IMG/VR virus record: IMGVR_UViG_3300038682_000017
DNA from: a virus
DNA: 41,822 nt
Reading direction: 5' to 3' (one strand)
Made by a program: the position numbers and the translations under genes. Positions 14,243 to 40,697 of the stretch are shown piece after piece (within the stretch, counting starts at the first letter, position 1; every line of letters starts with the position of its first letter). Below the pieces are notes generated by a model, which saw nothing but the letters and a program-made list of their open reading frames with translations, searched no databases and had not been told where the DNA came from.

Positions 14243-14247
14243 CGACA

Positions 14248-16788: not shown

Positions 16789-16797
16789 AGGTGCACC

Positions 16798-17109: not shown

Positions 17110-17121
17110 TGAGGTGACCAC

Positions 17122-17778
17122 ATGGCTTCTGAAGTTGAAATCTGTAACCTGGCACTGAGTAACATTCGTGCAGGTAGCATTAACTCATTAAATGAGAGTA
17201 GCTTACAGGCTCAGGTCTGTAAGCTGAAATACCCTATTCTTCGTGACCGTTGTCTGCGTGAAATACCGTGGCAATTCAACCGTAAAATTAGAGCATTAGC
17301 ATCTGTTACCACTGACATCTTTCAATGGTCTTATTCGTATTCATACCCTGTTGATTGTTTGAAGATACACCGTTTAGTTGGTGCTTATGAAGAACTACCT
17401 ATCGGTAGCAATGATGTGGTGTCACGGTTGTTAGATAGTCGTGTTCAATCACCAACTGATTTACGCAGACAGATACCGTATGAAGTGTTCAACTTCGATG
17501 ATAACAAGCTAATAGGCTCAAACCAGCCTGACCTGAGAATTGACTTTGCTGCTAAGGTTACTGATCCTAATTTGTTCAGTGACGACTTCATTATGGCATT
17601 GTCACACTTACTATCGTCTGAAGTTGCAATACCGATTGTCGGTGCTGAATTGGGTCGTGCATTGAGAAACGATTCACTGCAACTTTACCGTCAATATCTT
17701 GCATCAGCTATGTCTACTGACATGAATGACCAGTTCTTAAACCCTGGTGAAAGTGACTATGTGAACATTAGGAATTAA
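17122..17778 (+). CDS. Tail tubular protein A / adaptor-like (T7 gp11 position).
   Basis: 218 aa against 196 aa for T7 gp11. It sits immediately before a ~770-aa protein, as in T7. GAGGTGA SD. Confidence 0.5.
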   Translation: MASEVEICNLALSNIRAGSINSLNESSLQAQVCKLKYPILRDRCLREIPWQFNRKIRALASVTTDIFQWSYSYSYPVDCLKIHRLVGAYEELPIGSNDVVSRLLDSRVQSPTDLRRQIPYEVFNFDDNKLIGSNQPDLRIDFAAKVTDPNLFSDDFIMALSHLLSSEVAIPIVGAELGRALRNDSLQLYRQYLASAMSTDMNDQFLNPGESDYVNIRN

Positions 17779-17781
17779 ATT

Positions 17782-20103
17782 ATGCCACAAACTACACAAC
17801 GTAGCTTTACATCTGGTGAGATTGCGCCAGCGTTACAATCACGTGCTGATTTAATCAAATATGCTACAGGTCTGAATAAATGTGAAAACTTTTTTGTGCG
17901 TGCACAAGGCGGTGTTTACTCACGTCCTGGTTTCAAGTTCGTCGGTGAACTTGATGACTCAACTCGTAAAGGTCGTCTGATTCCTTTTAGTTTTAACACT
18001 GAACAAACTTACATTCTTGTATTCGAGCATCTGAAAGTTCGTGTGATCAAAAATGGCGGTTTCGTGTTAGCAGGTGGTGGTCCTGATATATTTGAACTTG
18101 CTACACCGTACACAGAAGAAGAGTTACCACGTTTAGGGTTCACACAGAACGCTGATGTGTTGACAATTGTTCACCCTGATCATGACCCACGTAACCTGAA
18201 TCGTTTAGCAGATGACAACTGGACATTAACTGTCATTGACTATACACCTACTGTACCTAGTCCGTCATTTAGTACAGGTTCAATCGATAAAACTATCACA
18301 GGTATCAGCAACGCAAACCCTGCTGTAGTCACTGCAACAGCTCATGGTTTTGTCACAGGTAACTTGATTTCAATCAGTGGTGTATCGGGTATGACTGAGG
18401 TCAACGGTAACTCGTATATCATCACAGTGCTGACACCTGATACATTTGAACTGAACGGTGTTGACTCAACCAGTTATGGTATTTACTCATCAGGTGGTAT
18501 AGCAAGTCGTCAGAACGGTGCTACAACTATCGGTGATGGTTTCGGTGACTTTGACAAAACGTATGCTTATGTAGTCACAGCGGTTGATGCTGCTGGTACT
18601 GAATCACTAGCGTCTGCTGAAACAAGTATCACAACTAAATCATTGTCACAGACTGGTGGTGTCCGTTTAACCTGGGACACTGTACCTGAAGCTGAGTATT
18701 ATCGTGTCTACAAAGACCCTTCACTGGGTACTGGTATTTATGGATGGATTGGTGACAGTAATAACAATTCATTTGATGATTATAACATTGCACCTATCAC
18801 CAGTGATGCACCACCACAGGATAGACAACCTTTTAATGGTGCTGACAATAAACCATCTGCTGTGACTTATTACCAACAGCGTCAAATGTTTGCTAACACG
18901 AACAATGAACCACAAGCAGTCTTCGGTACTCAAGTAAATAATTTCAATTCATTGAGAGTATCTAACCCTGCTCGTGATGATGACGCTGTGACATTTACTA
19001 TTGCAGCACGACAAGTTAACGAGATACGTCATCTATTACCACTTGATTCACTAATCATGCTGACATCTGGTGGTGAGTGGATTCTTACTGAAGGGCAGGA
19101 TCGAGTGTTGACACCTTCAACTATCGGTGTCCGTATTCAGTCATATAACGGTGCTTCAATCGTCCCACCGATAGTGATCAACAGTACAGCTTTATACCTT
19201 CAAGAAAAAGGTGCACGTCTTCGTGATTTAGGTTACGAGTTCAGTAGCGACAAATACACAGGAAGTGACTTGTCGCTGATGTCTGAACATCTTTTTGAAG
19301 GTAAACAGATCACAGCAATGGCTTATGCTGCTGAACCTTATAGTATCGTGTGGTGTGTTCGTGATGATGGTGTGTTACTGGGTTTAACTTATCAACGTGA
19401 ACACCAGGTATGGGGTTGGCATCAACATACTACTCAAGGTGAATTTGAAGATGTTGCAACTGTGACTGAAGGTGAGCGTGACGCTGTTTATGTAATTGTC
19501 AAACGCACAATCAATGGTTCAGATGTTCGATATGTTGAGCGACTTGAACCACGTGAATCAGTGAATGCTGAAGATTGTTTCTATGTTGATTCAGGTCTGA
19601 CTTACAACGGTGCACCTGCAACAGTAATCAGTGGTCTTGACCATCTTGAAGGTGAAACTGTGACTATCTTAACTGATGGTTACACTGTACCAGATCAAGT
19701 TGTATCAGGTGGTCAAATTACACTTGTGCGTGCTGCGTCAAAGGTTCATGTAGGTTTAAGTTACACACCACGTATTGAAACACTTGATATTGATACTGCT
19801 TCAGCAAGTCAGACTGTTAAAGCGCAATCTGTATCGGTGTCAAAGGTTACACTTGAGGTTGAAGGTTCTCGTGGCGGTTGGGTTGGTCCACGTAAAGATA
19901 ACAATGGTGAACCGGTAATGAGTGAAATTAAACCACGTTTCGACGATGATAATTACGATCCTATTGCACTGAAGACTTACAAAGCTGATTTATTTATTCA
20001 ACCTCAATGGTCAAAAGGTGGCGGTCTTCGTATTGAACAACGTGCACCGTTACCTATGGCTATACTTGCTGTAATACCTCAGATTGATGTAGGTGGTAAC
20101 TAA
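17782..20103 (+). CDS. Tail tubular protein B / nozzle-like (T7 gp12 position).
   Basis: 773 aa against 794 aa for T7 gp12; the call rests on synteny. The N-terminus RSFTSGEIAPALQSRADLIKY is a pattern I associate with podophage tail proteins. Confidence 0.55.
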   Translation: MPQTTQRSFTSGEIAPALQSRADLIKYATGLNKCENFFVRAQGGVYSRPGFKFVGELDDSTRKGRLIPFSFNTEQTYILVFEHLKVRVIKNGGFVLAGGGPDIFELATPYTEEELPRLGFTQNADVLTIVHPDHDPRNLNRLADDNWTLTVIDYTPTVPSPSFSTGSIDKTITGISNANPAVVTATAHGFVTGNLISISGVSGMTEVNGNSYIITVLTPDTFELNGVDSTSYGIYSSGGIASRQNGATTIGDGFGDFDKTYAYVVTAVDAAGTESLASAETSITTKSLSQTGGVRLTWDTVPEAEYYRVYKDPSLGTGIYGWIGDSNNNSFDDYNIAPITSDAPPQDRQPFNGADNKPSAVTYYQQRQMFANTNNEPQAVFGTQVNNFNSLRVSNPARDDDAVTFTIAARQVNEIRHLLPLDSLIMLTSGGEWILTEGQDRVLTPSTIGVRIQSYNGASIVPPIVINSTALYLQEKGARLRDLGYEFSSDKYTGSDLSLMSEHLFEGKQITAMAYAAEPYSIVWCVRDDGVLLGLTYQREHQVWGWHQHTTQGEFEDVATVTEGERDAVYVIVKRTINGSDVRYVERLEPRESVNAEDCFYVDSGLTYNGAPATVISGLDHLEGETVTILTDGYTVPDQVVSGGQITLVRAASKVHVGLSYTPRIETLDIDTASASQTVKAQSVSVSKVTLEVEGSRGGWVGPRKDNNGEPVMSEIKPRFDDDNYDPIALKTYKADLFIQPQWSKGGGLRIEQRAPLPMAILAVIPQIDVGGN

Positions 20104-20570
20104 TGATTGAGTTTGTAAGACCGACAGTTGAGATGGTTGAGTCCATTGCATCAGACATGCGTCAGGCTGACATTGATGAAGTGTGGGCCTCAAACCACCA
20201 CACACCTTTAGAGTCGATGATGAAAGGTTGGGAATTATCTGACTTTGCAACCGTGGCAATGTGCAACAATGAACCACTCGTGATGATTGGTCTTGTCAAA
20301 CGTGACGTGTTAACCGGTAGCGGTGTTGTGTGGATGCTTGGCGCTAATAGAGCAATGAAATACAAAAGAGAATTCTTCCGTCAAACTAAACCGGTGATCG
20401 ATGAGATGCTGACTATATGTCCACGTTTGTGTAACATGGTGCATAGTAAGAACAAGAACAGTATTGCGTGGCTTAAATGGTTAGGGTTCACAATTGAAGA
20501 ACCTATACCTCATGGTCCTGATGATGAACTGTTCCATCGATTTCATTTAGAGGGGTCAACTAATGTGTGA
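20103..20570 (+). CDS. Internal virion protein A-like (T7 gp13 position; GNAT-like fold suspected).
   Basis: 155 aa against 138 aa for T7 gp13. TAATG coupling. The C-terminal ...SIAWLKWLGFTIEE is GNAT-like. Confidence 0.45.
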   Translation: MIEFVRPTVEMVESIASDMRQADIDEVWASNHHTPLESMMKGWELSDFATVAMCNNEPLVMIGLVKRDVLTGSGVVWMLGANRAMKYKREFFRQTKPVIDEMLTICPRLCNMVHSKNKNSIAWLKWLGFTIEEPIPHGPDDELFHRFHLEGSTNV

Positions 20571-21108
20571 ACCGACTACGATAATGGCAGCAGTTGCAGT
20601 GGTATCGGCTGCATTTACTGCTGACCAACAAATTAAACAAGGTAAGTATCAGAAAAGTGTTGCTGAGTACAATGCTGCTGTTGCTGAGAATGAAGCTGAA
20701 GAAACACGTAACGCTGGTGTCGAGCAGGAGAACATTCACCGGCGAAAGGTTGCTGAACTGATGTCGAAACAGCGTGCACAACTGGGTGCAGCTAATATCG
20801 ATTTATCATCAGGTTCAGCGTTGGATTTACAACAACAAACTCAAGCAATGGGTGAAGCCGATGCACTGCGTATTCGTAGCAATTTTGAAAATCGAGCTGC
20901 ATCACTTGAAACTGGTGCTGAACTCACTCAGTCACAAGGGGAATTTGCTGAACAAGCAGGTCGTGGTGCAGCAACTGGTACATTGTTACAAGGTGCAAGC
21001 ACTGTGTTAGGTACAGGTGTGGCTGATAAATGGTTCACACCAGAAAGTGCTGCATTAGCTGGTACACCAACTAACGTGAATCAGCCTAGTGTTGGGAGTA
21101 TTGCATAA
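20563..21108 (+). CDS. Internal virion/ejection protein (T7 gp14 position).
   Basis: 181 aa against 196 aa for T7 gp14. It has an N-terminal hydrophobic helix TTIMAAVAVVSAAF followed by coiled-coil-like sequence. Confidence 0.5.
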   Translation: MCEPTTIMAAVAVVSAAFTADQQIKQGKYQKSVAEYNAAVAENEAEETRNAGVEQENIHRRKVAELMSKQRAQLGAANIDLSSGSALDLQQQTQAMGEADALRIRSNFENRAASLETGAELTQSQGEFAEQAGRGAATGTLLQGASTVLGTGVADKWFTPESAALAGTPTNVNQPSVGSIA

Positions 21109-22739
21109 TGCCTAAAGTCGCACAGTATGAAGGTAATCAGGTACTTACTCAGGTTGTTAGTCAACCACGTGCGGATGCGTCAGCAGGTAATGCTGTATTC
21201 CGTTCAAACATTCAAGCTGCTCAAGGTCTTGCTCAAGTAGCACAAGCTGGTGTTGAAGTTAAGCAGCGTATTGATACCACATCTGCTGAAGAAGCATTAG
21301 TGGCATTTGAGCGTGACAAAAACAATTTATTCTTTAATCCTGAAAACGGTTACTTCAATACACAGGGTAAGAATGCCTTTGATAACGCTACTGCTGCAAA
21401 TGATGCACTTGCAAAGCTAAAGCAGCAGTACGGTGATGGTCTGAATGAAAATGCTAAACGAATGTTTGATAAGTCAGCAGATGTTCATATTACACGTGGT
21501 CAAGCAGATATTGCGCGTCACTCAGCTAAAGGGTTGAAAGCGTGGGAAGTTGCCACTATTCGATCACAAGTAGAGAACACCGTTGAGAATGCTTCATTGT
21601 ATTGGAATCAACCTGATCAATTAGCGGTGCAAAATGCACTAGGTCGTCAAGCGGTGATTGATGCTGCTGAACTTGAAGGTATTGGTCCTGAAGCAACTGC
21701 TGAACGGTTGCAGACTTATGACTCATCTTTTGCTAAAGCAGCTATCACAGCAGCCACAGGTAATAGTGCTGCTGAAGGTCAACAGATGTTGGACAAACAT
21801 GGTGATAGATTAGAAGGACCTGATAAGCTGAAACTTGAAAAAGATATTGCAGCTAAACAAAAAGCAGAGAAAATTCAGGCTGATTCTCAACAAGCGATTC
21901 TCACCGGTACTAAACTGGTTGATACTTATGATGATCGTGAAGATATTCGTCAGGAAGTAAATAAAATTGAAGATCCTGAACTTCGTAAGAAAACAATGAC
22001 TGAAGCAATGCGTCAGTTTGAGTTGAAGAAGAAAGCTGAGAATGAAGCACAGACGGAAGCGTATGAAGCTGCTGAATCTCACATTATCAACGGTGGAAGT
22101 GCTGAAACTTATCAAGCTGAAGATCCTGAAGGTTGGGAACGTCTGACCGCTAAACAGAAACGCAGTATTGAAGAAGGTAAAGCAGTGATCACCGATTGGA
22201 ATGTTTATTCTGAATTGATGACATTACCTAAAGCTGAACTTGCTAAAGTTAACCCTAATGAACACTTCCACCAGCTTGCACCTGCTGAACGTAAATCTCT
22301 GGTGAGTGCTGTTAAAAGTGCAGGTGGTACAGGTTCATCTGCTGACAAGATTGATCATCAGATAGGTCGTACACGTAGTTCTCAGACTACTGCTGCTGTT
22401 GAACAGATACTTGGTAAGAAGAACAAGTGGAACGATGATAAGCGTAAACAAGCTGATGCTTTTTATGACCTGCTTGACGGTGAAGTTAAATTCCGTGAGC
22501 AGCAGAAAGGTGGACAGTTGAATTCCCAAGAATTTACTGATGTGTTGTCAGATTTAACAAGAGGGGTTACTATTGAGCGTAGTGCATTCGGTGTTGATTT
22601 CTTAGCACCAGATGTAGAACAAAATGTCACAGACATACCACCTGAGAACGTAAGAGTGTTGAGTAAATTCTTGCGTGATAATGGAATACCTGTAACTGCT
22701 GACAACTTGATTAAGGCTCAACGACAAGCGAGTGAATAA
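21108..22739 (+). CDS. Internal virion/core protein (T7 gp15 position).
   Basis: 543 aa, predicted mostly helical, with TAATG coupling on both sides. It lies between the gp14-like and gp16-like genes. Confidence 0.5.
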   Translation: MPKVAQYEGNQVLTQVVSQPRADASAGNAVFRSNIQAAQGLAQVAQAGVEVKQRIDTTSAEEALVAFERDKNNLFFNPENGYFNTQGKNAFDNATAANDALAKLKQQYGDGLNENAKRMFDKSADVHITRGQADIARHSAKGLKAWEVATIRSQVENTVENASLYWNQPDQLAVQNALGRQAVIDAAELEGIGPEATAERLQTYDSSFAKAAITAATGNSAAEGQQMLDKHGDRLEGPDKLKLEKDIAAKQKAEKIQADSQQAILTGTKLVDTYDDREDIRQEVNKIEDPELRKKTMTEAMRQFELKKKAENEAQTEAYEAAESHIINGGSAETYQAEDPEGWERLTAKQKRSIEEGKAVITDWNVYSELMTLPKAELAKVNPNEHFHQLAPAERKSLVSAVKSAGGTGSSADKIDHQIGRTRSSQTTAAVEQILGKKNKWNDDKRKQADAFYDLLDGEVKFREQQKGGQLNSQEFTDVLSDLTRGVTIERSAFGVDFLAPDVEQNVTDIPPENVRVLSKFLRDNGIPVTADNLIKAQRQASE

Positions 22740-25700
22740 TGCCAGATTTAGACCTTGAGAAGATTGACCTAGGTAGTTTCGGGTTAAATGAAGAAGATCA
22801 ACAACAGACACAGTTGAATGCTACTGTGTCTGAAGCGATTAAGGTTAACCCTGATCAATACATTCAAACAGTCAATCTTAGTAAGGAATCCGGTGTACCT
22901 GAATTCGCTGTACAATCTAACCCTGATCAAGTGCAACATAAACTGAAGTTGGACAAGATCAACCTCGAAGGTATGACTAAGCGTGCACCGAAGACTTCTA
23001 AATTCCTCACCGATAACCCGAACAATGCTGTCATTGCTCAAGAAGATGTTGTTGATAACCTGCTTGAAGGTATTGAAAAGACGTTTGATAACATCGGTGA
23101 AACCATCGGTATAGGTTTTGATATTCAAGGTCGTGGTCTGTTACTGGCTGGTAATGAAGCCACGACTAACCGTATTGATGATTTAATACCAGCAAGTGCT
23201 ATGCCTATCGGTATGGAATTTGAAGCGCAACGTCTATCACGTGAAATTGCTACTACCTTCGGGATTGAAACAGATGAGCAACTTGCTGAAGCTAAACAAG
23301 AATTCAGTGATAAATTAATCGGTGAAATTCAACAACTTCAGAAAGAACGTCAAGCATTAACACCTGAAGACATGAACATTGTGCAAGAAGGTGTGCGTGC
23401 AGGTGTTGAGTCACTTGCTAACATGTTACCTGGTGTTGCACTTACTGTTGCATCAGGTGGTCGTACAGCACCTTTACTATTCACCATTGGTGCACAGACA
23501 TTCTCAGGTTCATACGGTGAAGGTCGTGCTGAAGGTCTGACACCTGAAGAAGCTCGATGGTATGCTGGTATTGATGCAGCAATTGAAGTTGGTACTGAGT
23601 TGCTACCCACCGGTACACTTGAACGTATTCTCACCGGAAAAAGTACAGGTTTGAAAAAAGAAGCATTAAAGTTCATCGTACAGGAAATGGGTACTGAGCA
23701 ACTTGCTACATTAGGTCAGACACTTAACTCTTACGCTTTTGATTTAGATCAAGAACTTGCAAATGCTCAAACTGTTGAAGAGATGGTCAATATTCAGCTA
23801 CGTCGTCAAGCTGTCACTGCGATTGCAACAGTGGTAGCTGGTGGTACTCAGATAACTGCTGCAACTACTGTCAATAAAACTATTGAGAAACTTGCAGGTA
23901 CTGAGAATCAGATTGAAGCACAAGGTACTGTTGAGCAGCGTAACCTTGATAAGTTGAATGCTGATTCAGTTAACTCGAAACTACGTGAGCGTGATGTTGA
24001 GTCATTCAAGCAATTCGTGCGTGAAGCAGACGGTGAGAATGGTACAACAGTGTTCATTGACGGTGTTCAAACTGCTTTGTATTTGCAAAGTAAAACACGT
24101 GAGCAGATTGAGAATGACCCTGCACTGAAGACGCTTGATAACGCTGTGCGTGAGTCACGTCAGACGGGTGCAGATGTCGCTATACCTGTTGATGAGTTCA
24201 TGGGTGATGTTGCTGGTACTGAAGCATACACTGAGTTACGTGACCACATGACGATGAGTGCTGAGACAGTTTCACCATTCCGTCAAGAACAGCACAAGAT
24301 TGAGACTCAGGAGTATGTGAAGACTTTGCTTGATGAAGCAAATGAGAACGCATCTGAGTACGTTGAAGCGCAGGAGATTTACACACAGGTTCGTGACCAA
24401 CTGGTTGACACTGGTGTGGTGAACCCACAGAACGCTTCAACTATGGCACAGATTGTCCCTGCATGGGCTACTGCTCAGGCACGTCGTACAGGTCGCAGTG
24501 TTCAAGAAGTCTATGAGTCAGCAGGTCTGACTATTGAAGGACCACAGACCGGTGAGCTTGCACGTCTTGAAGGTGAGCAGGTGTTGACTCAGGACTTTGC
24601 TGACTATTTCAATGTTAAAAGTGAATCTCAAAGCATTGGAGCTGAGACAGGTAAATTCAATAAAGATGGTGTTTCTAAACTAGATGCTCAGTTTACACCT
24701 AATGAAAACTTTATCAGTCGTCGATATGTGAAAGCTAAAGACGGTGAGATAATTTCATTTGTTCAAGTCACCAGTACAGACGGTGGTAAAACTGCAACAA
24801 TAGCTAATGCTGCAACTAAAGATGAACACAAGCGTCAAGGTCATGCTAGTGAACTGTTAGCTGAAGCACGTAAGGATTTTGAATCCGTTGAACATTCTGA
24901 CGATTTGTCAGCAGAAGGTGCAGCATTTGCAGCAGCTACACCACAGGTATTCGAGCAATCGGTGATTGATGACCCACGTAACCTGTTCGTTGCTCACAAT
25001 ATCAGTGAAGCAGGTATCGCTGCTGCTGAAGACCTTGGTGGTCTGGCTGCACCGTCGATTGCTGTTGCTAACCTTGATGTAGGTGGTTTTGAATCTTTCG
25101 GTGAGATAACCCTACTTGCTGATCCTGAAGTCTTGAATGACCCTACCTTCAGAACATTCGACGCTGATATTTATAGTGCAAGACAACCACGTTCAGTTGA
25201 TAAGCTGGACCAGAAGAAAGTGCGTCAACTGAGTGACGATGTTGATCAAGCAAACCAGGGTACAGGGTTGCGTCCGTTCTATGAAGTTCAGGAAATAGCT
25301 GACCTTGATAAAGATAACGTATTTAACTACTGGCTCACCACGGTGGGTAAAGCACCTAAGCTGAAGAAGATTAAAGCAACACCGTTATCGAAAGCAGTTG
25401 AAGGTGTTGAGAATTTTGACTTAGCAGAAAGTGAACAACTGAAACAAGCTGTTGCTGACATCTATAAAAAGCAGATTGACACAATACTCGGTGATAACCC
25501 TACTGAAGCAGAAACTGAACTTGCAATGGATATTGCAGCAGATTGGTTCAATGTAAAAATACCTGAAGGTGTAGAACTACGCTGGTTACCAGATGAAGGT
25601 TCAAACGGTAGCTATGCTTATTTCAAAGGTGATGAACGTGTATCAGATGTTTATAGTCGTGGTAACCGTTTAATGTCTAAGCGTCTTGCTGAGAAGCGTT

Positions 25701-28700
25701 ATGCTGATGAGCTAGTTGAATCAGGTGAGTTTGAATTAGATTTCACTTCCCCTAAACCGAAGCTGATCACCGATGCGGTAAATGAAGTTCGTAAAATCCG
25801 TGAAGGTTTTGATCAACAGAAATTTGCTGAAGACTTGGCTAAGAAGAATCAGAACAAGAAACTACGTTCTGACTTTAAAGAGTGGATGAATGAAACCTAT
25901 GCTGACATGTTAGTTAAACGTCAGCTATTTAAAGGCTACACACCAGCAGGTGACCGTAAGTATGCTGAATACACTTTGAATAATGTTGTCCGTGAGATGA
26001 CAAGAACATTGCAAGGCGGTGAAGGTTTTAACTATGGTGTTGCGTCAGTTCGCTCACGTTACGCTAATGAACTGTCTACAAAAGAAAAGGTGCAAGCTGT
26101 ACGTGATAAAATTATCTCATCAGATGAAATGTCAAAGATTAAAGACGAAGCTGCTGAGAAATTTGAAAAAGCATTAGAAGAATTGAAACCTTATTACAAG
26201 TTCGATTCTGACAGTTGGGGCTATGGTAGTGATGTTGCTGAAGCAATCACACAAGGTCCATCTGGTGTACGTGAAGCATTCGGTAATAGTCCTGAAGCTA
26301 GAAAGATTATTGATGAACTCGGTAAATATTTAGCATCGTTACCAACTGAGTATTTTGAAGCTAAAGTACAACGTGCTATGGATTTTTCAGAGTTCAACAC
26401 CGCTATTGTTCCTAAAAGTGCATCAAAGAAAACTGTTGATACTTTGAAATCGAAAGGTTTAAAAATTCGCAGATACGATCCTAATGTTGAAGGTTCACGT
26501 GCTGAAGTAATTGCTAAACAAACACGTTTACTTTTCCAAGATCAACCTGACACCGGTAAAGCTCGTGGTTACTACGACCCTGAGAACAGTATCATCAGAC
26601 TGACTGAATCTGCTGACCTGTCAACATTCCTGCACGAATTCGCTCACTTCATGTATGAGATGGAAGTGCAGTCAGGTACTGAGTTGAATGACAGCATCAA
26701 CAACTGGTACAAGCGCAATGCTAAAGAAGTTGCTGCTGAAGCGACTAAGAACCTCAACGGTAACTTTGACCCACTGAAGCAGGGTGAACGTGTTACTGAT
26801 GAAAAACAGACGGTGAATGAAGCGAGTGTCATCAACTACCTTGACACCGGTACTTCAGGAAACCGTGACAAAGATGCTGCAATTCGTCGTGCTGTACATG
26901 AACAGTTTGCTCGTGGGTTCGAGACTTACCTGATGGAAGGTAAAGCACCAAGTATTGAACTGCGTAACGCATTCAGAACCTTTGCACGTTGGTTGTCTCA
27001 GATTTATCAAGCATTCCGTGGTAACTTGAACGTGACACTCGACAACGAGATGCGTCAAGTATTTGACCGTTTGCTTGCTACTGAAGAACAGATTGCTGCT
27101 GCTGAGTCACGTGCACGTGTTGAACCAATGTTCACCGATGCTGCAATGGCTGGTATGACTGCTGAAGAATTCGCTGACTATCAGAAGCGTCAGGGTAAAG
27201 TTAAGGACGTACAGTCTGAGACACTGCGTGACAAGATGATTGCTGCTATCACCCGTAAGACTGAACAGTGGTGGAAAGAAGAAAAAGCTGACCTAGTTGA
27301 TGAAGAGATGGGTCGTCTAGCCGGTGAAAAAGTTTACTCGACTGCTACACGTCTTCGTGATGGTGACATCAAACTTGACCATGCAACCGTGAAAGAGATG
27401 ATCGGTGAAGAACGTACTGACAAGCTGGGTCGCAAGTCTATACGCATTCCTGATCAACTTCGTGGTATGACGGCAAAAGGTCAGAAAGGTATACAACCTG
27501 ATGAAGCTGCTGCATTCTTCGGTTACAACTCAGGTGCTGAGATGTTGAACGACCTGACCACTGCACCATCGATGCGTGAGACTGCTGAAGCTAATGCTGA
27601 GTCACGTATGACTGAGCGACACGGTGACCCGTTCACTGATGGTACGATTGAACGACTTGCTGATGAAGCAGTGCAGAATGAAGAACGTGGTAAGCTGATC
27701 CTGCATGAATTGAAGATGCTTGCACGTGGTACTAATCAGCGCACCATTGACCGTCAAACAATGAAATCGGTTGCTGAAGAACGTATCGGTCAGTTGTCAT
27801 TCCGTGAGATTCACCCTGGTAAATATCGCAAGGCTGAGATTCGAGCTGCACAAGAAGCTGCACGTATGCTGGCTGAAGGTAACAAAGAAGGTGCTGCTCA
27901 AGCTAAAGCACGTCAAGCATTGAACTATTACCTCGGTATGGCTGCGACTGAAGCGAAGAATAACACGGTGAAAATCGTTGACCGTATGGGTCGCTACAGT
28001 AAGAAGAAAGTGCGTGAGGAAATTCAGAAAGCTGAAGGTGGGTACTGGGAACAGATCACCAAGATACTTGATCGCTTTGAATTCAGAAAAACTGCATCAC
28101 TTGCTCAGGTTGATCAACTTAATCAGGACATCAACACCTGGTCAAAAGAACGTATGGACGTACACGGTGACGGACTGGTGCTGCACAATGCAGTGTTGAA
28201 TGAGTCTTATGTTACCCATTGGAAGAATGTTGCTTATAGTGACCTTCAGGGTATCGATGACTCAGTGCGTAACATCGAACACGTTGCACGTTACTCGAAC
28301 AAACTCACTCGTATGGGTGAAGAGATTGAGTATAACAAACTTGTTGAAAAGCTGGTGGCAACTGCTGCTGAAACAGGTACTGGTCGATTCAAGAAGAGTG
28401 CAAGTACTGCTGATGACCTGAGCTGGATTGAACGTAAGGGTCGATGGGCTATGGCTCAGATGACTAAGATACCTTACATGATGTCATGGATGGACGGTGT
28501 TGAACGAGTAGGTACATGGTTCACCACGTTCTCACAACCGATGACGGATGCTTACAATGCTGAGTTAGAGTTGTTTGAAGAAGTGGGTAAACCTGTTATC
28601 GATATGATTCAGAACCGTAGCAAAGAAGACATGAAGCGTCACAACACTACATTCTTCATACCTGAAATCAAAGGTACAGCAAACGGTACTCACACCGGTA

Positions 28701-30430
28701 ACTTGAAAGGTCATGAGATTATTGCAGTCGCATTGAACACTGGTAACGAAGGTAACTTGAAAAAGATGCTACTCGGTGAAGGTTGGGCTAAAGAAGATGG
28801 TAACGACATCAACTTGCAGAACGCTCGACTACAAGCTGTGTTGAAGCACATGACTGAATCAGACTGGCAGATGGTTCAGAAGATTTGGGATCAGATTGAT
28901 ATTCTTTACCCGAAACTTGCTGAAGTGTATCGTCGCACCACTGGACTTGTACCACCTAAAGTTGAAGCTACACCGGTTGAAACACCATACGGTACATTCA
29001 AAGGTGGTTACTACCCTGTTAAGTATGACCCGACTCGTGACAATAAAGCTGCTGAGTTTGAAGAACGTAAAGATGCTGAAGTGGGGTCAATGTTTGCCAG
29101 TAACGCCAGCATTCAAGCATCGGTGAACACTGGTTCAACTAATGAACGTACAGGTTACTACGCACCGATTCACTTGACGTTGAACGTAGTTCCTAATCAT
29201 ATTCAGGAAACCATTCACTATATTACTCACCATGATGCAGTGCGTGAGGTGAACCGTTTACTGCGTGACCCACGGATCAAGGACGCTGTGACTGAGAAAC
29301 TAGGTCCTGAAGAATTCGCACAACTTAAACCGTGGTTGAACGATATTGCTAAAGATGGTCGTAACGCACCTAACAAGTCGATTGTTGATGCAATGTTCAA
29401 CAGACTGCGTTTAGGTACTACACTCGGTGTAATGGGTTTCAAAGCGTCTACCGGTATCATTCAGATTTCAGGTCTGTCTAACACCATTGCTGAAGTGGGT
29501 ATGAAGCCGGTGATGCAGTCAATGCGTACTATACTCGGTAGTGTTGACAGCATGAGAAGTGCCTGGGAGTTTGCCAATGAAAAGTCTAAAGTGCTGAAGC
29601 ATCGTACTAAGACAATGGATCGTGAATTGATGAATGCAATGCAACAGCTCGAAAGTAAGCGTGGTGTATTTGCAGCAATTCAAGAAGCGTCGATGAAACA
29701 TATTGCATTGATTCAGACTTACATGGTTGATTTACCATCATGGCACGCTGCGTACATTAAAGAACTCAGTGAATCTGGTGACGAAAAGAAAGCGTTCCAA
29801 TATGCTGACTGGGTGATTGAAAATGTTCAAGGTTCAGGTGTGACTAAAGACATGGCTGGTCTGATGCGTAACCAGACTAAGACGCACACCATCTTCACCA
29901 TGTTCATGACTTTCTTCAGTGCATTGTGGAACTTACAACGTGATCTGGTGAAAGGTGCTAAGACAGGTAAATACTCGACCACTACTGTTGCAGCTAAAGC
30001 AATGTTCTTGTTCACCATACCAGTATTGTTCGAGATGATGATGCGTGGTGAGTTTGCGAAAGATGACCAAGAACCTGAAGAGTTGTTACAAGAAACACTA
30101 ACTAAGGTCGCATTGTACCCGATTGCATCAATACCTTTTGTACGTGATGCTGCTAACGGTCTATTCAGTGGTTATCAGTACAACGCTTCACCGGTGACCT
30201 CTATCGTTGAGCAAGGTTTACAAGGTTTAAAAGGTGGTGGTAAAGCCGTTCTTACTGATGATGAATTGACAAAGAGTCAGGCTAAATCAATCAGTAAATT
30301 ACTAGGTGCAGGTTTAGGTGTACCAGGTACAGGTCAAGCGTGGGCTTCCGGTGAACATTTATATGATGTCATTGCTGAAGGTGAAGATTTCACCATGCAC
30401 CAGTTCTTATTTGGTCCTGAGCATAAGTAG
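22739..30430 (+). CDS. Giant (2563-aa) internal virion/ejection protein in the T7 gp16 position, with embedded HEXXH zincin-like and GNAT-like modules and a C-terminal multi-TM region.
   Basis: Uninterrupted 7.7-kb ORF coupled by TAATG. HEFAH lies at nt 26633-26647 (aa 1299-1303). HKRQGHASELL lies at about nt 24826-24860. Hydrophobic helices lie at about nt 29400-30150. The position call rests on synteny with T7 gp16. Confidence 0.7.
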   Translation: MPDLDLEKIDLGSFGLNEEDQQQTQLNATVSEAIKVNPDQYIQTVNLSKESGVPEFAVQSNPDQVQHKLKLDKINLEGMTKRAPKTSKFLTDNPNNAVIAQEDVVDNLLEGIEKTFDNIGETIGIGFDIQGRGLLLAGNEATTNRIDDLIPASAMPIGMEFEAQRLSREIATTFGIETDEQLAEAKQEFSDKLIGEIQQLQKERQALTPEDMNIVQEGVRAGVESLANMLPGVALTVASGGRTAPLLFTIGAQTFSGSYGEGRAEGLTPEEARWYAGIDAAIEVGTELLPTGTLERILTGKSTGLKKEALKFIVQEMGTEQLATLGQTLNSYAFDLDQELANAQTVEEMVNIQLRRQAVTAIATVVAGGTQITAATTVNKTIEKLAGTENQIEAQGTVEQRNLDKLNADSVNSKLRERDVESFKQFVREADGENGTTVFIDGVQTALYLQSKTREQIENDPALKTLDNAVRESRQTGADVAIPVDEFMGDVAGTEAYTELRDHMTMSAETVSPFRQEQHKIETQEYVKTLLDEANENASEYVEAQEIYTQVRDQLVDTGVVNPQNASTMAQIVPAWATAQARRTGRSVQEVYESAGLTIEGPQTGELARLEGEQVLTQDFADYFNVKSESQSIGAETGKFNKDGVSKLDAQFTPNENFISRRYVKAKDGEIISFVQVTSTDGGKTATIANAATKDEHKRQGHASELLAEARKDFESVEHSDDLSAEGAAFAAATPQVFEQSVIDDPRNLFVAHNISEAGIAAAEDLGGLAAPSIAVANLDVGGFESFGEITLLADPEVLNDPTFRTFDADIYSARQPRSVDKLDQKKVRQLSDDVDQANQGTGLRPFYEVQEIADLDKDNVFNYWLTTVGKAPKLKKIKATPLSKAVEGVENFDLAESEQLKQAVADIYKKQIDTILGDNPTEAETELAMDIAADWFNVKIPEGVELRWLPDEGSNGSYAYFKGDERVSDVYSRGNRLMSKRLAEKRYADELVESGEFELDFTSPKPKLITDAVNEVRKIREGFDQQKFAEDLAKKNQNKKLRSDFKEWMNETYADMLVKRQLFKGYTPAGDRKYAEYTLNNVVREMTRTLQGGEGFNYGVASVRSRYANELSTKEKVQAVRDKIISSDEMSKIKDEAAEKFEKALEELKPYYKFDSDSWGYGSDVAEAITQGPSGVREAFGNSPEARKIIDELGKYLASLPTEYFEAKVQRAMDFSEFNTAIVPKSASKKTVDTLKSKGLKIRRYDPNVEGSRAEVIAKQTRLLFQDQPDTGKARGYYDPENSIIRLTESADLSTFLHEFAHFMYEMEVQSGTELNDSINNWYKRNAKEVAAEATKNLNGNFDPLKQGERVTDEKQTVNEASVINYLDTGTSGNRDKDAAIRRAVHEQFARGFETYLMEGKAPSIELRNAFRTFARWLSQIYQAFRGNLNVTLDNEMRQVFDRLLATEEQIAAAESRARVEPMFTDAAMAGMTAEEFADYQKRQGKVKDVQSETLRDKMIAAITRKTEQWWKEEKADLVDEEMGRLAGEKVYSTATRLRDGDIKLDHATVKEMIGEERTDKLGRKSIRIPDQLRGMTAKGQKGIQPDEAAAFFGYNSGAEMLNDLTTAPSMRETAEANAESRMTERHGDPFTDGTIERLADEAVQNEERGKLILHELKMLARGTNQRTIDRQTMKSVAEERIGQLSFREIHPGKYRKAEIRAAQEAARMLAEGNKEGAAQAKARQALNYYLGMAATEAKNNTVKIVDRMGRYSKKKVREEIQKAEGGYWEQITKILDRFEFRKTASLAQVDQLNQDINTWSKERMDVHGDGLVLHNAVLNESYVTHWKNVAYSDLQGIDDSVRNIEHVARYSNKLTRMGEEIEYNKLVEKLVATAAETGTGRFKKSASTADDLSWIERKGRWAMAQMTKIPYMMSWMDGVERVGTWFTTFSQPMTDAYNAELELFEEVGKPVIDMIQNRSKEDMKRHNTTFFIPEIKGTANGTHTGNLKGHEIIAVALNTGNEGNLKKMLLGEGWAKEDGNDINLQNARLQAVLKHMTESDWQMVQKIWDQIDILYPKLAEVYRRTTGLVPPKVEATPVETPYGTFKGGYYPVKYDPTRDNKAAEFEERKDAEVGSMFASNASIQASVNTGSTNERTGYYAPIHLTLNVVPNHIQETIHYITHHDAVREVNRLLRDPRIKDAVTEKLGPEEFAQLKPWLNDIAKDGRNAPNKSIVDAMFNRLRLGTTLGVMGFKASTGIIQISGLSNTIAEVGMKPVMQSMRTILGSVDSMRSAWEFANEKSKVLKHRTKTMDRELMNAMQQLESKRGVFAAIQEASMKHIALIQTYMVDLPSWHAAYIKELSESGDEKKAFQYADWVIENVQGSGVTKDMAGLMRNQTKTHTIFTMFMTFFSALWNLQRDLVKGAKTGKYSTTTVAAKAMFLFTIPVLFEMMMRGEFAKDDQEPEELLQETLTKVALYPIASIPFVRDAANGLFSGYQYNASPVTSIVEQGLQGLKGGGKAVLTDDELTKSQAKSISKLLGAGLGVPGTGQAWASGEHLYDVIAEGEDFTMHQFLFGPEHK

Positions 30431-30466
30431 TGATAGACTTTAATCAATTGCAATTTGGAGTGTCAC

Positions 30467-31174
30467 ATGACAGTTAACAGTAAAAAAATTACATCAGGTC
30501 CTTATGATGGGAATGATATTGCTGACACCTTCAGTTATACATTTAAGATTTTTGACAAAAGTGAAGTCAGTGTATATGAAACTGATGACACTGGTGTTGA
30601 AACACTGTTGACTGTTGATAGTGATTACACAGTCACTGGTGTTGGTAATGATGCAGGTGGAACTATAACACGAACAGCAGGTGCTTTACCCACCGGTTAT
30701 CAATGGTTTATTCGATCAAATTTTGAAGAAACTCAGTTGACAGCATTCACGTCACAAGGACCATTCTTCCCCGATTTACATGAAAATGCAATGGATAAGC
30801 TGACATTATTGATTCAGCAGATCCTTGATAAACTTACTAGGACTTTTACTTTATCAGATTCATATACAGGTCCACTTCCGTTATCACTTGAAGATCCTGA
30901 CGCTGGTAAAGTTCTCAGATGGAATCAAGATGAATCAGGTATTGAGAATTTTGATACCGATGCTGCTTATGCGAACATCGACGGTGATACAATGACAGCA
31001 CCGTTAGCAGGTCCTTACAGTCAGAAGTCTGATGATTACATGCCGCAACTTCAGGTCACAGAAGTGATTGATAATCGGATGAGTTCAGCACCTGAGTTTG
31101 ATCCTGAAAGTTTTATAGATTACGGTTTAGTTACCAGCTCGGTGAACGACCAATTTGATTACGGGAGTATATAA
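30467..31174 (+). CDS. Tail fibre/spike adaptor protein.
   Basis: GGAG lies 6 nt upstream of ATG 30467; the ORF-track TTG 30455 is unlikely. The N-terminal pattern GPYDGNDIADTFSYTFKIFDKSEVSVYE...DYTVTG is typical of podophage fibre N-terminal domains. Confidence 0.5.
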   Translation: MTVNSKKITSGPYDGNDIADTFSYTFKIFDKSEVSVYETDDTGVETLLTVDSDYTVTGVGNDAGGTITRTAGALPTGYQWFIRSNFEETQLTAFTSQGPFFPDLHENAMDKLTLLIQQILDKLTRTFTLSDSYTGPLPLSLEDPDAGKVLRWNQDESGIENFDTDAAYANIDGDTMTAPLAGPYSQKSDDYMPQLQVTEVIDNRMSSAPEFDPESFIDYGLVTSSVNDQFDYGSI

Positions 31175-31175
31175 C

Positions 31176-33158
31176 ATGGCTACACAAGTAAAACACCGTC
31201 GTGGTACTAATGCTGAGATTTTAGCTGGTACACCAGCCATCGGTGAACTGTGGTTTAACACCACTGATAATAGCATTCACATGGGGGATGGTGTCACACC
31301 AGGTGGTGTTAAACATGCTCGATTGAAAGATGTGACTATCAAAGATTCTGATACTATTAGTGATGCTTTGAATCGTTCTGATATTGAAGAGGGTCACGTT
31401 GTTCTTGTAAGCGAGATAACAACAGGTAATGGTGGATTCAGTTACTTTGATGTTGTACTAACATCATCTGTTACACCAGACGGTATTGATATTCGTCAAA
31501 GTACAGCGATACCAACATTATCACTGAAGAAGCGTATTGTTAACCGTTTTGGTGGTGTATCACTTGTTTATGATGATGCTAACCAAACTGTAAAAGATGA
31601 CTTGATGCCTGTGTCTGTATCTGAAGATTTTAAAACAAGTTTGGCTATTTATCATTCAGGTATGGCTACAAGTTACGATTTTGTCACAATGCGAGAAGCA
31701 CTTGATTTTCGTAAAAATGTAAACGGTGAATTGTTAAGTCACTCAATGAACTCACTTGTCCTTAACAGTGCTGTTGATTTGACATACGGTGAAAACTTGT
31801 TGAAAACATCAGCAACTGAATTTAGTCAATTCGGTTTTTTACCACGTGGTTTCGTTGCACCAAGTTCAACACTTGATGCTAAATTCAGACCGCAACTTGA
31901 ACAGTCTTTTGATTTTGCTTTCATCCGTTCTGTCGGTGCAGGTGCTGGTATTACAGCAAATAATAACTTCGGTGATGACAGATACAATCTGACAAGGATT
32001 GCCCTTACTGATTCTTTCGGTACGGAAGTTATTACACTAAATGAGGCAAAAGCTTACGTTGATCAAGCAAGAGCTTATGAAGCGTATATTTGTTTTTATG
32101 CTCACACTTTACCTTCTTACATGACAGATTTGATGCAATACATCAAAGACACTTATGTTGTGATGAACCCGTCAGAATGGGTCGGCAATTACTGGGGTCT
32201 GAATAAAGATGTGAGTGTCAAACATCAAGAGAACCTGTTAGTTAATAGTGGTTTCAAACTGATCAATGCGGATGATACAGCACCGTACAAATGGTCTTAT
32301 AACCCTAACACGTTAGTGACACCGACATTAAATATTAATGATGATGAAGGTGGTGCAACTATTGATTTAATCAGTGGTGCAGGTGTCGGTGGTGAAACCG
32401 CTATTTTAAGTCAGAACTATGAATTCACTAAGTTGAATCAGCTAACACCTTTTTGTCTCAGCATATATGCCACTTCATTAGCATCAACCAACACTGATGT
32501 TAAACTGGCACTGTATGCTAAGGATGTATCTAATGTCACAATTGCATCAGTGTCTAAAACATTCACAGTCGCAGGTAATAGACAACGGCTAGAAATTTCT
32601 CAGGCTTTTGTTCCTGATGCTAATGTAGTTCGCATTCTCGCTGAGATAACAATCATTGCTAAAGGTGCTGGTGGTGTTCGTGCAATCATGGATAGTCCAC
32701 AGTTAGAGCGTTCAGGTTTTGCTACACCTTATCGTCTAACAAAGATGAATAAATACTACAGTGTATTAAGACGTACAACAGGGTTAACCGTTAGCCCTAA
32801 TACTGATACATTAATTAATTTTAACGCATCACTCGAAGGTTCTAATAGTATCTTTGATTTAGCAACTGGTAACGCTAAACCCAATGACGGTAGAAATTAT
32901 TTACTACAATGTAATTTCGGTTTACAAGGTATGGTAGCCGGTGATTCTATTGAATGTCACTTACTGATCAATGGTGCACCGTCTAGAAAAGCTATGTTTA
33001 CTGCTGTTGCAGGTACTAACATTTTGAATCCTTCATGGACACTCCGTGGCGATGGTAGAACTTACGCTATCGGTATTCGACACAACAGTGCAGCAGGTAG
33101 GTCAATAACTACTTTTGCTGATGCGACAATGACGGTTACATCAAGTGAGGATCAATAG
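31176..33158 (+). CDS. Tail fibre / receptor-binding protein with an Mtd_N-like N-terminus, a possible CE4 deacetylase-like middle domain and a CBM-like C-terminal domain.
   Basis: GGGAG lies 8 nt upstream of ATG 31176; the ORF-track TTG 31155 overlaps the previous gene. The N-terminus QVKHRRGTNAEILAGTPAIGELWFNTTDNSIHMGDGVTPGG is the common fibre motif shared with the BPP-1 Mtd N-terminal domain. Confidence 0.7.
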   Translation: MATQVKHRRGTNAEILAGTPAIGELWFNTTDNSIHMGDGVTPGGVKHARLKDVTIKDSDTISDALNRSDIEEGHVVLVSEITTGNGGFSYFDVVLTSSVTPDGIDIRQSTAIPTLSLKKRIVNRFGGVSLVYDDANQTVKDDLMPVSVSEDFKTSLAIYHSGMATSYDFVTMREALDFRKNVNGELLSHSMNSLVLNSAVDLTYGENLLKTSATEFSQFGFLPRGFVAPSSTLDAKFRPQLEQSFDFAFIRSVGAGAGITANNNFGDDRYNLTRIALTDSFGTEVITLNEAKAYVDQARAYEAYICFYAHTLPSYMTDLMQYIKDTYVVMNPSEWVGNYWGLNKDVSVKHQENLLVNSGFKLINADDTAPYKWSYNPNTLVTPTLNINDDEGGATIDLISGAGVGGETAILSQNYEFTKLNQLTPFCLSIYATSLASTNTDVKLALYAKDVSNVTIASVSKTFTVAGNRQRLEISQAFVPDANVVRILAEITIIAKGAGGVRAIMDSPQLERSGFATPYRLTKMNKYYSVLRRTTGLTVSPNTDTLINFNASLEGSNSIFDLATGNAKPNDGRNYLLQCNFGLQGMVAGDSIECHLLINGAPSRKAMFTAVAGTNILNPSWTLRGDGRTYAIGIRHNSAAGRSITTFADATMTVTSSEDQ

Positions 33159-33635
33159 ATGATTACAGCACTAATATCAACGATTACAGGTCTGGTATCA
33201 GGGGCAGTTCCTAACCTGTTAAAAGAATGGGGTGCATCTCGTGAACATAATCGTGAAGTTGAGATGCTTAAAATTCAGACGGAGCTACAACTGAAGATTG
33301 CTGAAAGGGAAGGTGAGACTCGTGTTGCTGAGATGGATCGTGAAGTTGACATTGCAGCATATAATTCACAGTCAAAGATTGCAGCAGCAAGTCTGAAGTC
33401 CACCGGTATTACCTGGGTTGACGCATGGAACGGTTCACTCAGACCATTTGCTGTGACTATCATCATCACGTTGTTTGCGGTCATGGCATCGTTTTACACT
33501 TATGCAGTGTTGAGTAGTGTCGAGTCATTACAGGACACGATGAAAGCTGTTGACCTGCTGTGGGGTTCACTCATCGGTGAAGCTATTCAAGCAGTGTTGG
33601 GTTTCTTATTCGGATATAGGTCTGCACGAAAATGA
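33159..33635 (+). CDS. Putative holin (3-TM, GTA-holin-like).
   Basis: It lies directly upstream of, and overlaps, the endolysin gene. It has three hydrophobic segments: ITALISTITGLVSGAV, FAVTIIITLFAVMASFYTYAVL and LLWGSLIGEAIQAVLGFLFG. Confidence 0.5.
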   Translation: MITALISTITGLVSGAVPNLLKEWGASREHNREVEMLKIQTELQLKIAEREGETRVAEMDREVDIAAYNSQSKIAAASLKSTGITWVDAWNGSLRPFAVTIIITLFAVMASFYTYAVLSSVESLQDTMKAVDLLWGSLIGEAIQAVLGFLFGYRSARK

Positions 33636-34114
33636 TCAAAGAAGGGGTCAATCTAGTCATCAGCTTTGAGGGATATTCATCTATCCCTTATCGCTGTTCT
33701 GCTGGCGTATGGACTATCGGGTACGGTACAACTCGTTACCCTGATGGTCGTCGTGTCACTGGTGATGACCCTGAATGCACTAAGGAACAAGCTGAAGCCT
33801 GGTTGCATCATGAACTTGAGAAAGCTGAACGTGCAGTGATTCGTTACACCAGTATTTATCTCAATGACTTGCAGCGTGCAGCATTGGCTAGTTTCGTTTA
33901 CAACCTGGGTAGCGGTGCATTCAGAGCTTCAACACTCAGACGACGTATTAACAGCAACAACTGGGAAGATGTACCGTATCAGTTATCACGGTGGAATAAA
34001 GCCGGTGGACGTGTGCTACGTGGTTTAGTTCGTCGTCGTGCTGCTGAAGCAGAGTTGTGGAATCAAGGTGTTGAGTGTTATGCTTTAACCATATTTAGTA
34101 GAGAAGAACAATGA
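33632..34114 (+). CDS. Endolysin, GH24 (T4/lambda-type) lysozyme.
   Basis: It has the catalytic pattern E-x8-C-x5-T (FEGYSSIPYRCSAGVWTIGYGTT) characteristic of GH24 phage lysozymes. Confidence 0.9.
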   Translation: MIKEGVNLVISFEGYSSIPYRCSAGVWTIGYGTTRYPDGRRVTGDDPECTKEQAEAWLHHELEKAERAVIRYTSIYLNDLQRAALASFVYNLGSGAFRASTLRRRINSNNWEDVPYQLSRWNKAGGRVLRGLVRRRAAEAELWNQGVECYALTIFSREEQ

Positions 34115-37510: not shown

Positions 37511-37511
37511 G

Positions 37512-37820: not shown

Positions 37821-37872
37821 AATAGTCACCTTGTTAATTTAGTTCACACTAACTGTTACACATTGTTCCACG

Positions 37873-40688: not shown

Positions 40689-40697
40689 GTCGTCACC

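Follow-up and report, generated by a model that had tools for sequence, protein, structure and literature searches.

Which kind of protein fills the gp16 position of a podophage when the reading frame found there is far longer than gene 16 of phage T7, and which of its parts are constant? This question is raised by one gene in the IMG/VR virus record IMGVR_UViG_3300038682_000017, a stretch of 41,822 nucleotides (nt) that is called the window in the following. The giant open reading frame (ORF) in question is:

22739..30430, plus strand: ORF with ATG start encoding 2563 amino acids (aa), read as a polyvalent protein of the virion interior (ejection protein) that fills the gp16 slot; PHROG 9880, E 5e-301

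No rival long ORF exists in this interval, the overlapping ORFs being short and antisense only. A preliminary description made from the letters of the window had placed this ORF in the T7 gp16 slot and proposed a polyvalent ejection protein with HEXXH and GNAT-like modules. The gene and all the motifs quoted in it were found again at the same positions or within a few residues, and with 1318 aa for T7 gp16 the ratio of the two lengths is 1.94, in agreement with its estimate of a twofold size. Our analysis shows that a conserved frame and an exchangeable slot for cargo make up the giant protein. We read it as the largest internal core (ejection) protein of a BPP-1/epsilon15-like Vibrio podophage, built as a cargo carrier, and put the probability of this reading at about 0.72.

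A coverage map computed by BLASTP against 126 homologues divides the protein into three parts:

22739..24592, plus strand: conserved N-module, aa 1-618; in 107-122 of 126 homologues, 92% identity to P0007 (the protein of a Tara Oceans scaffold), 26% to BPP-1 Bbp10
24593..26536, plus strand: variable cargo cassette, aa 619-1266; in only 22-42 of 126 homologues
26537..30430, plus strand: conserved C-module, aa 1267-2563; for the most part in 124-126 of 126 homologues, but in 107-119 over the last ~110 aa

The division into a conserved frame and an exchangeable slot follows from this map together with three further observations. The same breakpoint residues (1-618 and 1267-2563) recur in many relatives, the slot between them having a length of 3 to 1346 aa. 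At the nucleotide level, the Tara Oceans scaffold (L012) is alignable without gaps to positions 16739-24591 of the window at 89.1% DNA identity and again to positions 26542-30649 at 93.2%. Between these flanks 1950 nt of the window have no counterpart and the scaffold carries 1350 unrelated nt instead, so that the breakpoints lie at 24591/24592 and 26541/26542. P0007 is 97.6% identical in the C-module, and its cassette, consisting of a GNAT and an ART-PolyVal ADP-ribosyltransferase, is unrelated to that of the giant protein. Iyer et al. (2017, PMC5512222) describe a GNAT family of gammaproteobacterial phages that adjoins ART domains. Finally, the slots of other relatives hold different domains according to Pfam, i.e. 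GGDEF, Kinase-PolyVal, Zeta toxin, a RadC-like JAB domain, or LPD23 together with a second HEXXH module. In Bbp10 of phage BPP-1 the order is LPD22, PBECR1, HEXXH and C-module.

The N-module contains one named domain and one region of hydrophobic character:

22832..23104, plus strand: LPD22 domain, aa 32-122; Pfam PF18834, E 6.9e-13, 49.1 bits at a cut-off of 28.6
23399..23866, plus strand: region with two stretches rich in Gly/Ala and of moderate hydrophobicity, aa 221-250 and 358-376; Kyte-Doolittle peaks 1.13-1.29

LPD22 is found in Bbp10, too (E 3.5e-25), and both hydrophobic stretches are kept in the family consensus. The multi-domain architecture seen in the preliminary description was confirmed, as LPD22 and PBECR5 (see below) both exceed their Pfam cut-offs, both were defined from polyvalent proteins, and the homologues exchange the enzymatic middle part. 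At least two unrelated effector or enzymatic domains are thus combined in one polypeptide (LPD22, GNAT-like, PBECR5 and HEXXH domain). Together with the location among virion structural genes and the mosaicism among orthologues, the diagnostic LPD and PBECR domains support the assignment of the predicted protein to the polyvalent class.

The larger part of the cassette is taken up by a predicted RNase and a block that accompanies it:

24962..25273, plus strand: PBECR5 (BECR-fold RNase) domain, aa 742-845; Pfam PF18814, E 8.1e-11, 42.7 bits at a cut-off of 25
25274..26518, plus strand: folded block travelling with PBECR5, aa 846-1260 (~415 residues), a unit common to ~30 homologues

A conserved-looking block at aa ~740-790 had been noticed before without its identity being recognised; it is the catalytic start of PBECR5, with the string NLFVAHNISEAG...VANL (NLFVAHNIS...VANL) at aa 748-779. 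Of the 239 positions of the PF18814 profile, the match spans no more than 9-114. In 20 sequences that carry the cassette, H753/N754 as well as the DLGGLAAPS and FDADIYSxRQPR blocks show no variation. PBECR5 belongs to the RNase families of the BECR fold that were defined from polyvalent proteins, and the BECR catalytic configuration includes a conserved His in the N-terminal helix (Iyer et al. 2017, PMC5512222), which H753 fits. Judged from these sequence features, PBECR5 is the best-supported enzyme in the giant protein and a predicted RNase. PHROG 22978 spans aa 740-1260, and the block behind PBECR5 was modelled at a predicted local distance difference test (pLDDT) of mostly 80-95; aa 846-1260 gave no match in Pfam or the PDB. 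A search with the cassette alone (24596-26518) returned only P0121 and P0122, which is an artefact of sensitivity in view of the ~30 cassette-bearing relatives detected with the full-length query.

In front of PBECR5, and separated from it by ~30 residues that are predicted to be disordered, lies the segment in which the preliminary description had seen an acetyl-CoA-binding GNAT motif:

24716..24880, plus strand: minimal GNAT-like module, Pfam PF00583 match at aa 660-714; predicted beta-sheet and helix at aa ~645-716

The GNAT-like string itself lies at aa 672-714. Scored within the whole protein, PF00583 reaches 18.7 bits and stays under the cut-off of 20.7; on the segment alone it reaches 24.2 bits (E 4e-5), and two orthologues 22.0 and 27.5 bits. 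The resemblance holds when the segment is scored by itself, but it concerns a minimal module that is restricted to the closest relatives and forms part of the variable cargo. The segment occurs only in the giant protein of the window, P0002 and P0004 and marginally in P0001. A comparison of the cassette model with known structures by Foldseek gave a list that was headed and dominated by GNATs (1y9w, GCN5, AAC(6')) at a probability of 0.9-1.0, with a root mean square deviation of 1.7-3.4 Å over 50-65 residues, but the E values were 0.07 or higher and the region was modelled at a pLDDT of 46-58.

Alternatively it might be that this segment is a decayed remnant or linker from an earlier cassette exchange, without acetyltransferase activity, which would leave the RNase as the sole working enzyme of the cassette. 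This is quite possible, the odds being somewhat against it. The partial match (profile positions 33-88 of 116), the narrow distribution, the pLDDT below 60 and the motif A loop K-R-Q-G-H-A, a K-x-x-G-x-A instead of the canonical Q/R-x-x-G-x-G/A, are in line with such a remnant. On the other hand, scoring by itself brings all three orthologues above the PF00583 cut-off, the motif A loop of P0004 is the canonical Q-K-E-G-I-G, GNAT structures lead the Foldseek list, and cassettes of relatives match the Acetyltransf_CG family. Minimal GNATs of ~80-100 aa of the Acetyltransf_CG type exist, which likewise speaks against decay. We regard the segment as a putative minimal GNAT of uncertain activity.

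Directly behind the cassette the frame resumes with the HEXXH domain:

26537..27088, plus strand: conserved HEXXH domain with which the C-module opens, aa 1267-1450; probably a metallopeptidase of the zincin type
26633..26647, plus strand: HEFAH motif (H1299, E1300, H1303), aa 1299-1303; in 276-277 of 277 aligned domains
26897..26953, plus strand: HEQFARGFETYLMEGKAPS helix, aa 1387-1405, 88 aa downstream of HEFAH; candidate third zinc ligand E1388 or E1395

The positions of HEFAH and of HEQFARGFETYLMEGKAPS behind it were recomputed and agree with those first reported. The suggestion to look for conservation of HEXXH among homologues gave a clear answer, as the motif is near-invariant across the 277 domains that were aligned from 264 proteins (H1299 kept in 276 of 277, E1300 in 277 of 277, H1303 in 276 of 277), while the composition of a protein of this size lets one expect 0.042 HEXXH motifs by chance. 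It was present in all 120 homologues of the first search and also in Bbp10, AF gp16, Cp2 ORF24, BL94 gp37, Carin1 gp32 and Mel-JY33. The two glutamates are nearly as constant (E1388 in 270 of 276, E1395 in 270 of 272 aligned domains). In the AlphaFold2 (AF2) model the domain consists of a beta-hairpin, the HEXXH helix (aa 1294-1312), a variable and partly disordered linker and a helix with the two glutamates (predicted at aa 1376-1400). The strands are predicted at aa 1277-1280 and 1285-1288, i.e. two compared to three in the canonical zincin core. The same layout, including variable inserts between the two helices, is given for metallopeptidases of polyvalent proteins by Iyer et al. (2017, PMC5512222).

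An exhaustive profile search with this domain detected 11,139 clusters (at 50% identity) at E <= 0.001 and 9,410 at E <= 1e-10. Its links to named families are weak: among 14 members, one matched Peptidase_M78 (E 0.004) and one DUF6782 (E 0.09), and a profile search of the PDB returned only a non-significant match to the HEXXH helix of neurolysin (E 1). The domain is related to a second HEXXH module (LSTLLHEVQH...GEIEAR) that occurs in the cassettes of Pseudomonas phage AF gp16 (L003), Xanthomonas phage Cp2 ORF24 (L004), P0042, P0098, P0100 and seven others. The comparison of both by hhalign gave a probability of 91% and an E value of 9e-7, with a target alignment trimmed so as to exclude the primary HEXXH domain of AF gp16. 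This LPD23-linked module follows LPD23 in P0042 and weakly matches the putative metallopeptidase family DUF6782. The zincin-like arrangement of the preliminary description is thus borne out by motif invariance and predicted topology, but not by a significant fold or family match. On the strength of the former we consider the domain a probable zincin; it is only probable because it has no name in any library and its best links are weak. Within the conserved frame, no part other than the HEXXH module looks like an enzyme.

In four homologues (P0068, P0099, P0101, P0112) the linker between the HEXXH and Glu helices carries ~130-160 extra residues. One of these inserts resembles a GNAT (Acetyltransf_10, E 1e-4), and a ParB-like string 'EGRHRALAA' without a Pfam match occurs in another. 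The equivalent linker in the protein of the window (aa ~1345-1385, nt ~26771-26893) holds no insert. Judged by these alignments, the linker is a second cargo insertion site, located inside the HEXXH domain.

The remainder of the C-module was modelled as an almost all-helical structure (aa 1255-2454, mean pLDDT 77.6, predicted template modelling score 0.63). Its frame is common to BPP-1 Bbp10, Cp2 ORF24 and Pseudomonas phage AF gp16, as detected by tblastn. The fold has 65 matches in BFVD at E <= 0.001, those with names being labelled LPD, ART-PolyVal, MuF_C, N-acetyltransferase or nuclease; sequence and profile searches of the PDB with the giant protein were empty. Near its end lies the following feature:

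29411..30163, plus strand: C-terminal hydrophobic helix cluster, aa 2225-2475; Kyte-Doolittle peaks 0.73-1.69, seen in the AF2 model and kept in the consensus

The surrounding genes were assigned by PHROG and Pfam matches, which agree with the T7-type order from portal to fibre given in the preliminary description, the gp13-like match being weak:

12294-13964: portal (PHROG/Pfam)
14239-14943: protease/scaffold (PHROG/Pfam)
14963-15961: capsid (PHROG/Pfam)
15999-16430, plus strand: Bbp16-like capsid cement, PF21190, E 3.8e-23; directly after the major capsid gene, absent in T7
17122-17778: gp11-like (PHROG/Pfam)
17782-20103: gp12-like (PHROG/Pfam)
20103-20570: gp13-like (weak match)
20563-21108, plus strand: gp14-like internal virion protein; Pfam PF24072 T7_gp14, E 1e-10; PHROG 418
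21108-22739, plus strand: gp15-slot internal protein, 543 aa; homologue of BPP-1 Bbp11 without its transglycosylase part
30455-31174, plus strand: tail fibre N-terminal adaptor gene, directly downstream of the giant ORF; tail-fibre PHROGs, E down to 7e-28
31155-33158, plus strand: second fibre gene; starts, like the tropism determinant of BPP-1, with Mtd_N (PF18454, E 1.8e-8)
33632-34114: lysozyme, separate gene

In spite of this order the phage is not T7-like but a BPP-1/epsilon15-like podophage of marine Vibrio. This follows from the lack of a phage RNA polymerase, the Bbp16-type cement (PF21190) and the Mtd_N domain of the second fibre gene, so that a T7-like (Autographiviridae) identity was rejected; the position of the cement after the capsid gene assigns the head to the BPP-1/epsilon15 group and not to the T7 group. 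The first ORF, of 900 aa, encodes a primase-type protein and not an RNA polymerase. The nearest relatives are the Vibrio phages 1.185.O, 1.021.A-C, PS25B.1 and MZH0603; BPP-1, Caulobacter Rauchvirus phages, Xanthomonas Cp2-like phages, Pseudomonas phage AF and some cyanophages are more remote. Synteny agrees with BPP-1 (bbp14-bbp13-bbp12-bbp11-bbp10-bbp9), Cp2, AF, Caulobacter phage BL94 and Cobetia phage Carin1. Near the second fibre gene, which is followed by an unknown protein and the lysozyme, no reverse transcriptase or Avd gene was seen among the part of the ORFs that was scanned, so that a diversity-generating retroelement seems to be absent.

The gp15-slot protein is alignable to BPP-1 Bbp11 at aa 1-247 and aa 289-409. 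It has no counterpart of the Bbp11 transglycosylase part (~aa 280-455) and no Pfam match. Furthermore, Pfam and NCBIfam contain no lytic transglycosylase match anywhere in the giant protein, as expected from the preliminary description, which had seen no such N-terminus. Accordingly, no cell-wall hydrolase is visible in either of the two large ejection-protein genes. The sole lysozyme is encoded by the separate gene listed above. Outside the structural region, the left end of the window carries a primase-type and a ribonucleotide reductase gene, and the right end (34447-41210, minus strand) forms a leftward replication block, the GC skew changing its sign at ~34.4 kb:

598-3300: primase-type ORF, 900 aa (left end)
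4632-6518: ribonucleotide reductase (left end)
34447-35943, minus strand: SNF2-type helicase
35940-37067, minus strand: DNA methyltransferase
37873-39924, minus strand: DNA polymerase

Bbp10 of BPP-1 (NP_958679) is a true homologue of the giant protein, with 26% identity in the N-module (E 1e-27) and 30% in the C-module (E 6e-131). The Bbp10 group, comprising Cp2 ORF24 (PhiXacm4-11 gp35), Pseudomonas AF gp16 and Caulobacter BL94 gp37, shares the gene position, the N-terminal LPD22 and the conserved HEXXH. Bbp10 also resembles the giant protein in a BECR-type RNase ahead of HEXXH, but this cargo is PBECR1, whereas AF and Cp2 carry the second HEXXH module as cargo. A further difference is that the gene in the gp15 slot of BPP-1 encodes a transglycosylase and that of the phage in the window does not. 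The polyvalent proteins of Iyer, Burroughs, Anand, de Souza and Aravind (2017, PMC5512222) share many enzymatic domains in one chain, the location among virion genes, LPD22/PBECR, a zincin-like HEXXH hub and mosaic orthologues. Unlike in that class, the conserved HEXXH domain described here is matched neither by MPTase-PolyVal nor by other Pfam models, and a fixed frame plus slot with breakpoints at nucleotide level, as documented here, was not found in the parts of that paper drawn on here.

T7 gp16 (IVP-D, for internal virion protein D) takes the same place, behind gp14 and gp15 and ahead of the fibre. At 1297 aa the C-module is close in length to T7 gp16 (1318 aa), and both are highly helical with hydrophobic helices. 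In contrast to T7 gp16, the giant protein has no lytic transglycosylase domain and ~1270 additional residues of N-module and cargo; an N-terminal lytic transglycosylase is not universal in the extended IVP-D family (Hardies et al. 2016, PMC4819975). The virion RNA polymerase gp50 of phage N4 is a giant ejected protein carrying an enzyme for the cytoplasm, its cargo being the RNA polymerase. It is treated as an IVP-D homologue with embedded cargo by Hardies et al. (2016, PMC4819975) and as a polyvalent protein with a metallopeptidase domain by Iyer et al. (2017, PMC5512222). Cyanophage A4 gp27 (PDB 9K2V/9K3A; PMC12002296), with 1717 aa the largest ejection protein of A4, is encoded behind an ejection protein that bears a transglycosylase and ahead of the fibre genes, and is packed in five copies on the portal. 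It differs from the giant protein by the lack of detectable homology, and no polyvalent cargo is described for it.

We infer the role in ejection from the gene position, from the homology to Bbp10 and Cp2 ORF24 and from published proposals. Hardies et al. (2016, PMC4819975) list Bbp10 as an IVP-D (gp16) homologue by means of joined hidden Markov models and state that domains bound for the cytoplasm are housed in internal virion proteins; their link to gp16 was not reproduced by hhalign in our analysis. A preprint on PhiXacm4-11 proposes gp35 (= Cp2 ORF24) as a gp16 analogue, again with no PDB similarity found. For the homologues, the papers on Ab31 and on Antarctic phages report no virion proteomics of this protein.

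On this basis the following course of events is conceivable. A few copies of the giant protein would be packed on the portal alongside the gp14-like and gp15-slot proteins and would be ejected through the tail at infection. The hydrophobic C-terminal helices, and perhaps the stretches of the N-module as well, may insert into the inner membrane as part of a DNA conduit, a role as that of T7 gp16. Ahead of all phage gene expression the cassette would then have reached the cytoplasm, where RNase and acetyltransferase might act on host RNA or protein and blunt defence or translation. The HEXXH domain is located exactly at the junction of cargo and frame. As most likely a zinc metallopeptidase, it might release the cargo by a cut in the polypeptide, in cis or in trans, or process the chain otherwise, which is the least certain step. 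That the domain represents a new, unannotated clade of zinc peptidases releasing the slot enzyme after ejection, and the Bbp10-type family a modular platform of podophages for protein injection, is a tentative and rather doubtful extension.

Several results weigh against the interpretation as an ejected cargo carrier. In the text of the PhiXacm4-11 preprint, gp35 is not named among the detected virion proteins. Comparison of the family profile with T7 gp16 by hhalign gave a probability of 0.3%, that with epsilon15 gp17, both as single sequence and as a 13-sequence profile, 0.5-1.1%, and those with epsilon15 gp16, A4 gp26, A4 gp27 (0.1%) and N4 gp50 at most 1.1%. A Foldseek search of the PDB with the 1200-aa model of the C-module returned nothing below E 0.48 and no gp16 entry, this top match being the non-significant one to N4 gp50 (9pnr). 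Homology of the C-module to the solved ejectosome proteins was therefore rejected. Of the hydrophobic helices, at least four of which had been expected in the last ~400 aa, 5-7 moderately hydrophobic ones are present in the last ~340 aa, but just one of them (aa 2417-2435, Kyte-Doolittle 1.69) exceeds the classical transmembrane threshold of 1.6. The HEXXH domain has no usable match to zincin families in Pfam (whole protein, isolated domain and 14 members), NCBIfam, PDB sequences or Foldseek, and the Pfam model MPTase-PolyVal matches neither the protein nor the isolated domain nor the 14 members at E values up to 10. Self-cleavage is a step that we purely infer. For the GNAT-like piece, which was modelled with low confidence, no motif B region (beta5-alpha4-beta6) is detectable, the match covering the beta-sheet and the motif A helix only.

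The main rival explanation concerns the site of action of the HEXXH domain, which might be an envelope-breaching enzyme, i.e. a periplasmic peptidase for peptidoglycan or lipoproteins replacing the lytic transglycosylase of T7 gp16. This view gains appeal as the phage of the window has no detectable transglycosylase in the proteins of both the gp15 and the gp16 slot; moreover, the conserved frame carries the domain at its N-terminus, the place of the lytic domain in T7 gp16, and other ejection proteins of podophages combine transglycosylase and metallopeptidase, e.g. A4 gp28 (PMC12002296). It is weakened by the finding that the domain is equally invariant in phages with a neighbouring transglycosylase (BPP-1 Bbp11, Cp2/PhiXacm4-11 gp34), and there is no similarity to M23, M15 or other families of cell-wall peptidases. 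Altogether we consider it unlikely. A more sweeping view of annotation would make the giant protein a lysis protein, a 'lysin' or an external tail component instead of an ejected internal protein. Homologues are indeed annotated as 'lysis protein', 'lysin containing a beta/gamma crystallin motif' or 'tail protein', but these annotations derive from an uninformative motif label on Bbp10. As no lytic domain was found, the lysozyme has its own gene and the giant ORF lies between genes of gp14/gp15-type internal proteins and the fibre, this is highly improbable.

It might also be that HEXXH is a conserved metal-binding or structural site without catalysis and that the protein serves mainly as scaffold and conduit, the cassette domains being the sole enzymes. 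The missing match to any peptidase family or structure, the two predicted strands instead of three and the tolerance of some homologues for insertions of ~130-160 residues between the motif helices would be explained in this way. However, the catalytic Glu of HEXXH is kept in all 277 domains and not the His pair only, and variable inserts between the helices are typical for metallopeptidases of polyvalent proteins (PMC5512222), so that we regard a purely structural site as improbable.

Parts of this picture are already published, namely the polyvalent class, the LPD22 and PBECR domains and gp16-type proteins carrying enzymes for the cytoplasm (Iyer et al. 2017; Hardies et al. 2016). Added here are the cargo slot at nucleotide level, a second site of insertion within the HEXXH domain, the extent of the unnamed HEXXH family and the negative results against all solved ejectosome proteins. 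Since the general idea is already in the literature, the value of the locus lies in its resolved anatomy and its use as a test system and not in a new principle.

The proteins that podophages inject ahead of their DNA, and the roles of these proteins in the first seconds of infection, are known for very few phages. The HEXXH domain is very common (~11,000 protein clusters), yet it has no name in current domain libraries. The locus represents a natural experiment, in which a frame of 89-98% identity is retained and a cargo slot of 0.6 kb to 4 kb is exchanged among collinear phages of marine Vibrio whose hosts are cultured. If the HEXXH domain is indeed a peptidase that releases the cargo, near-isogenic Vibrio phages differing only in their cargo would be a ready system for measuring injected enzymes against host defences.

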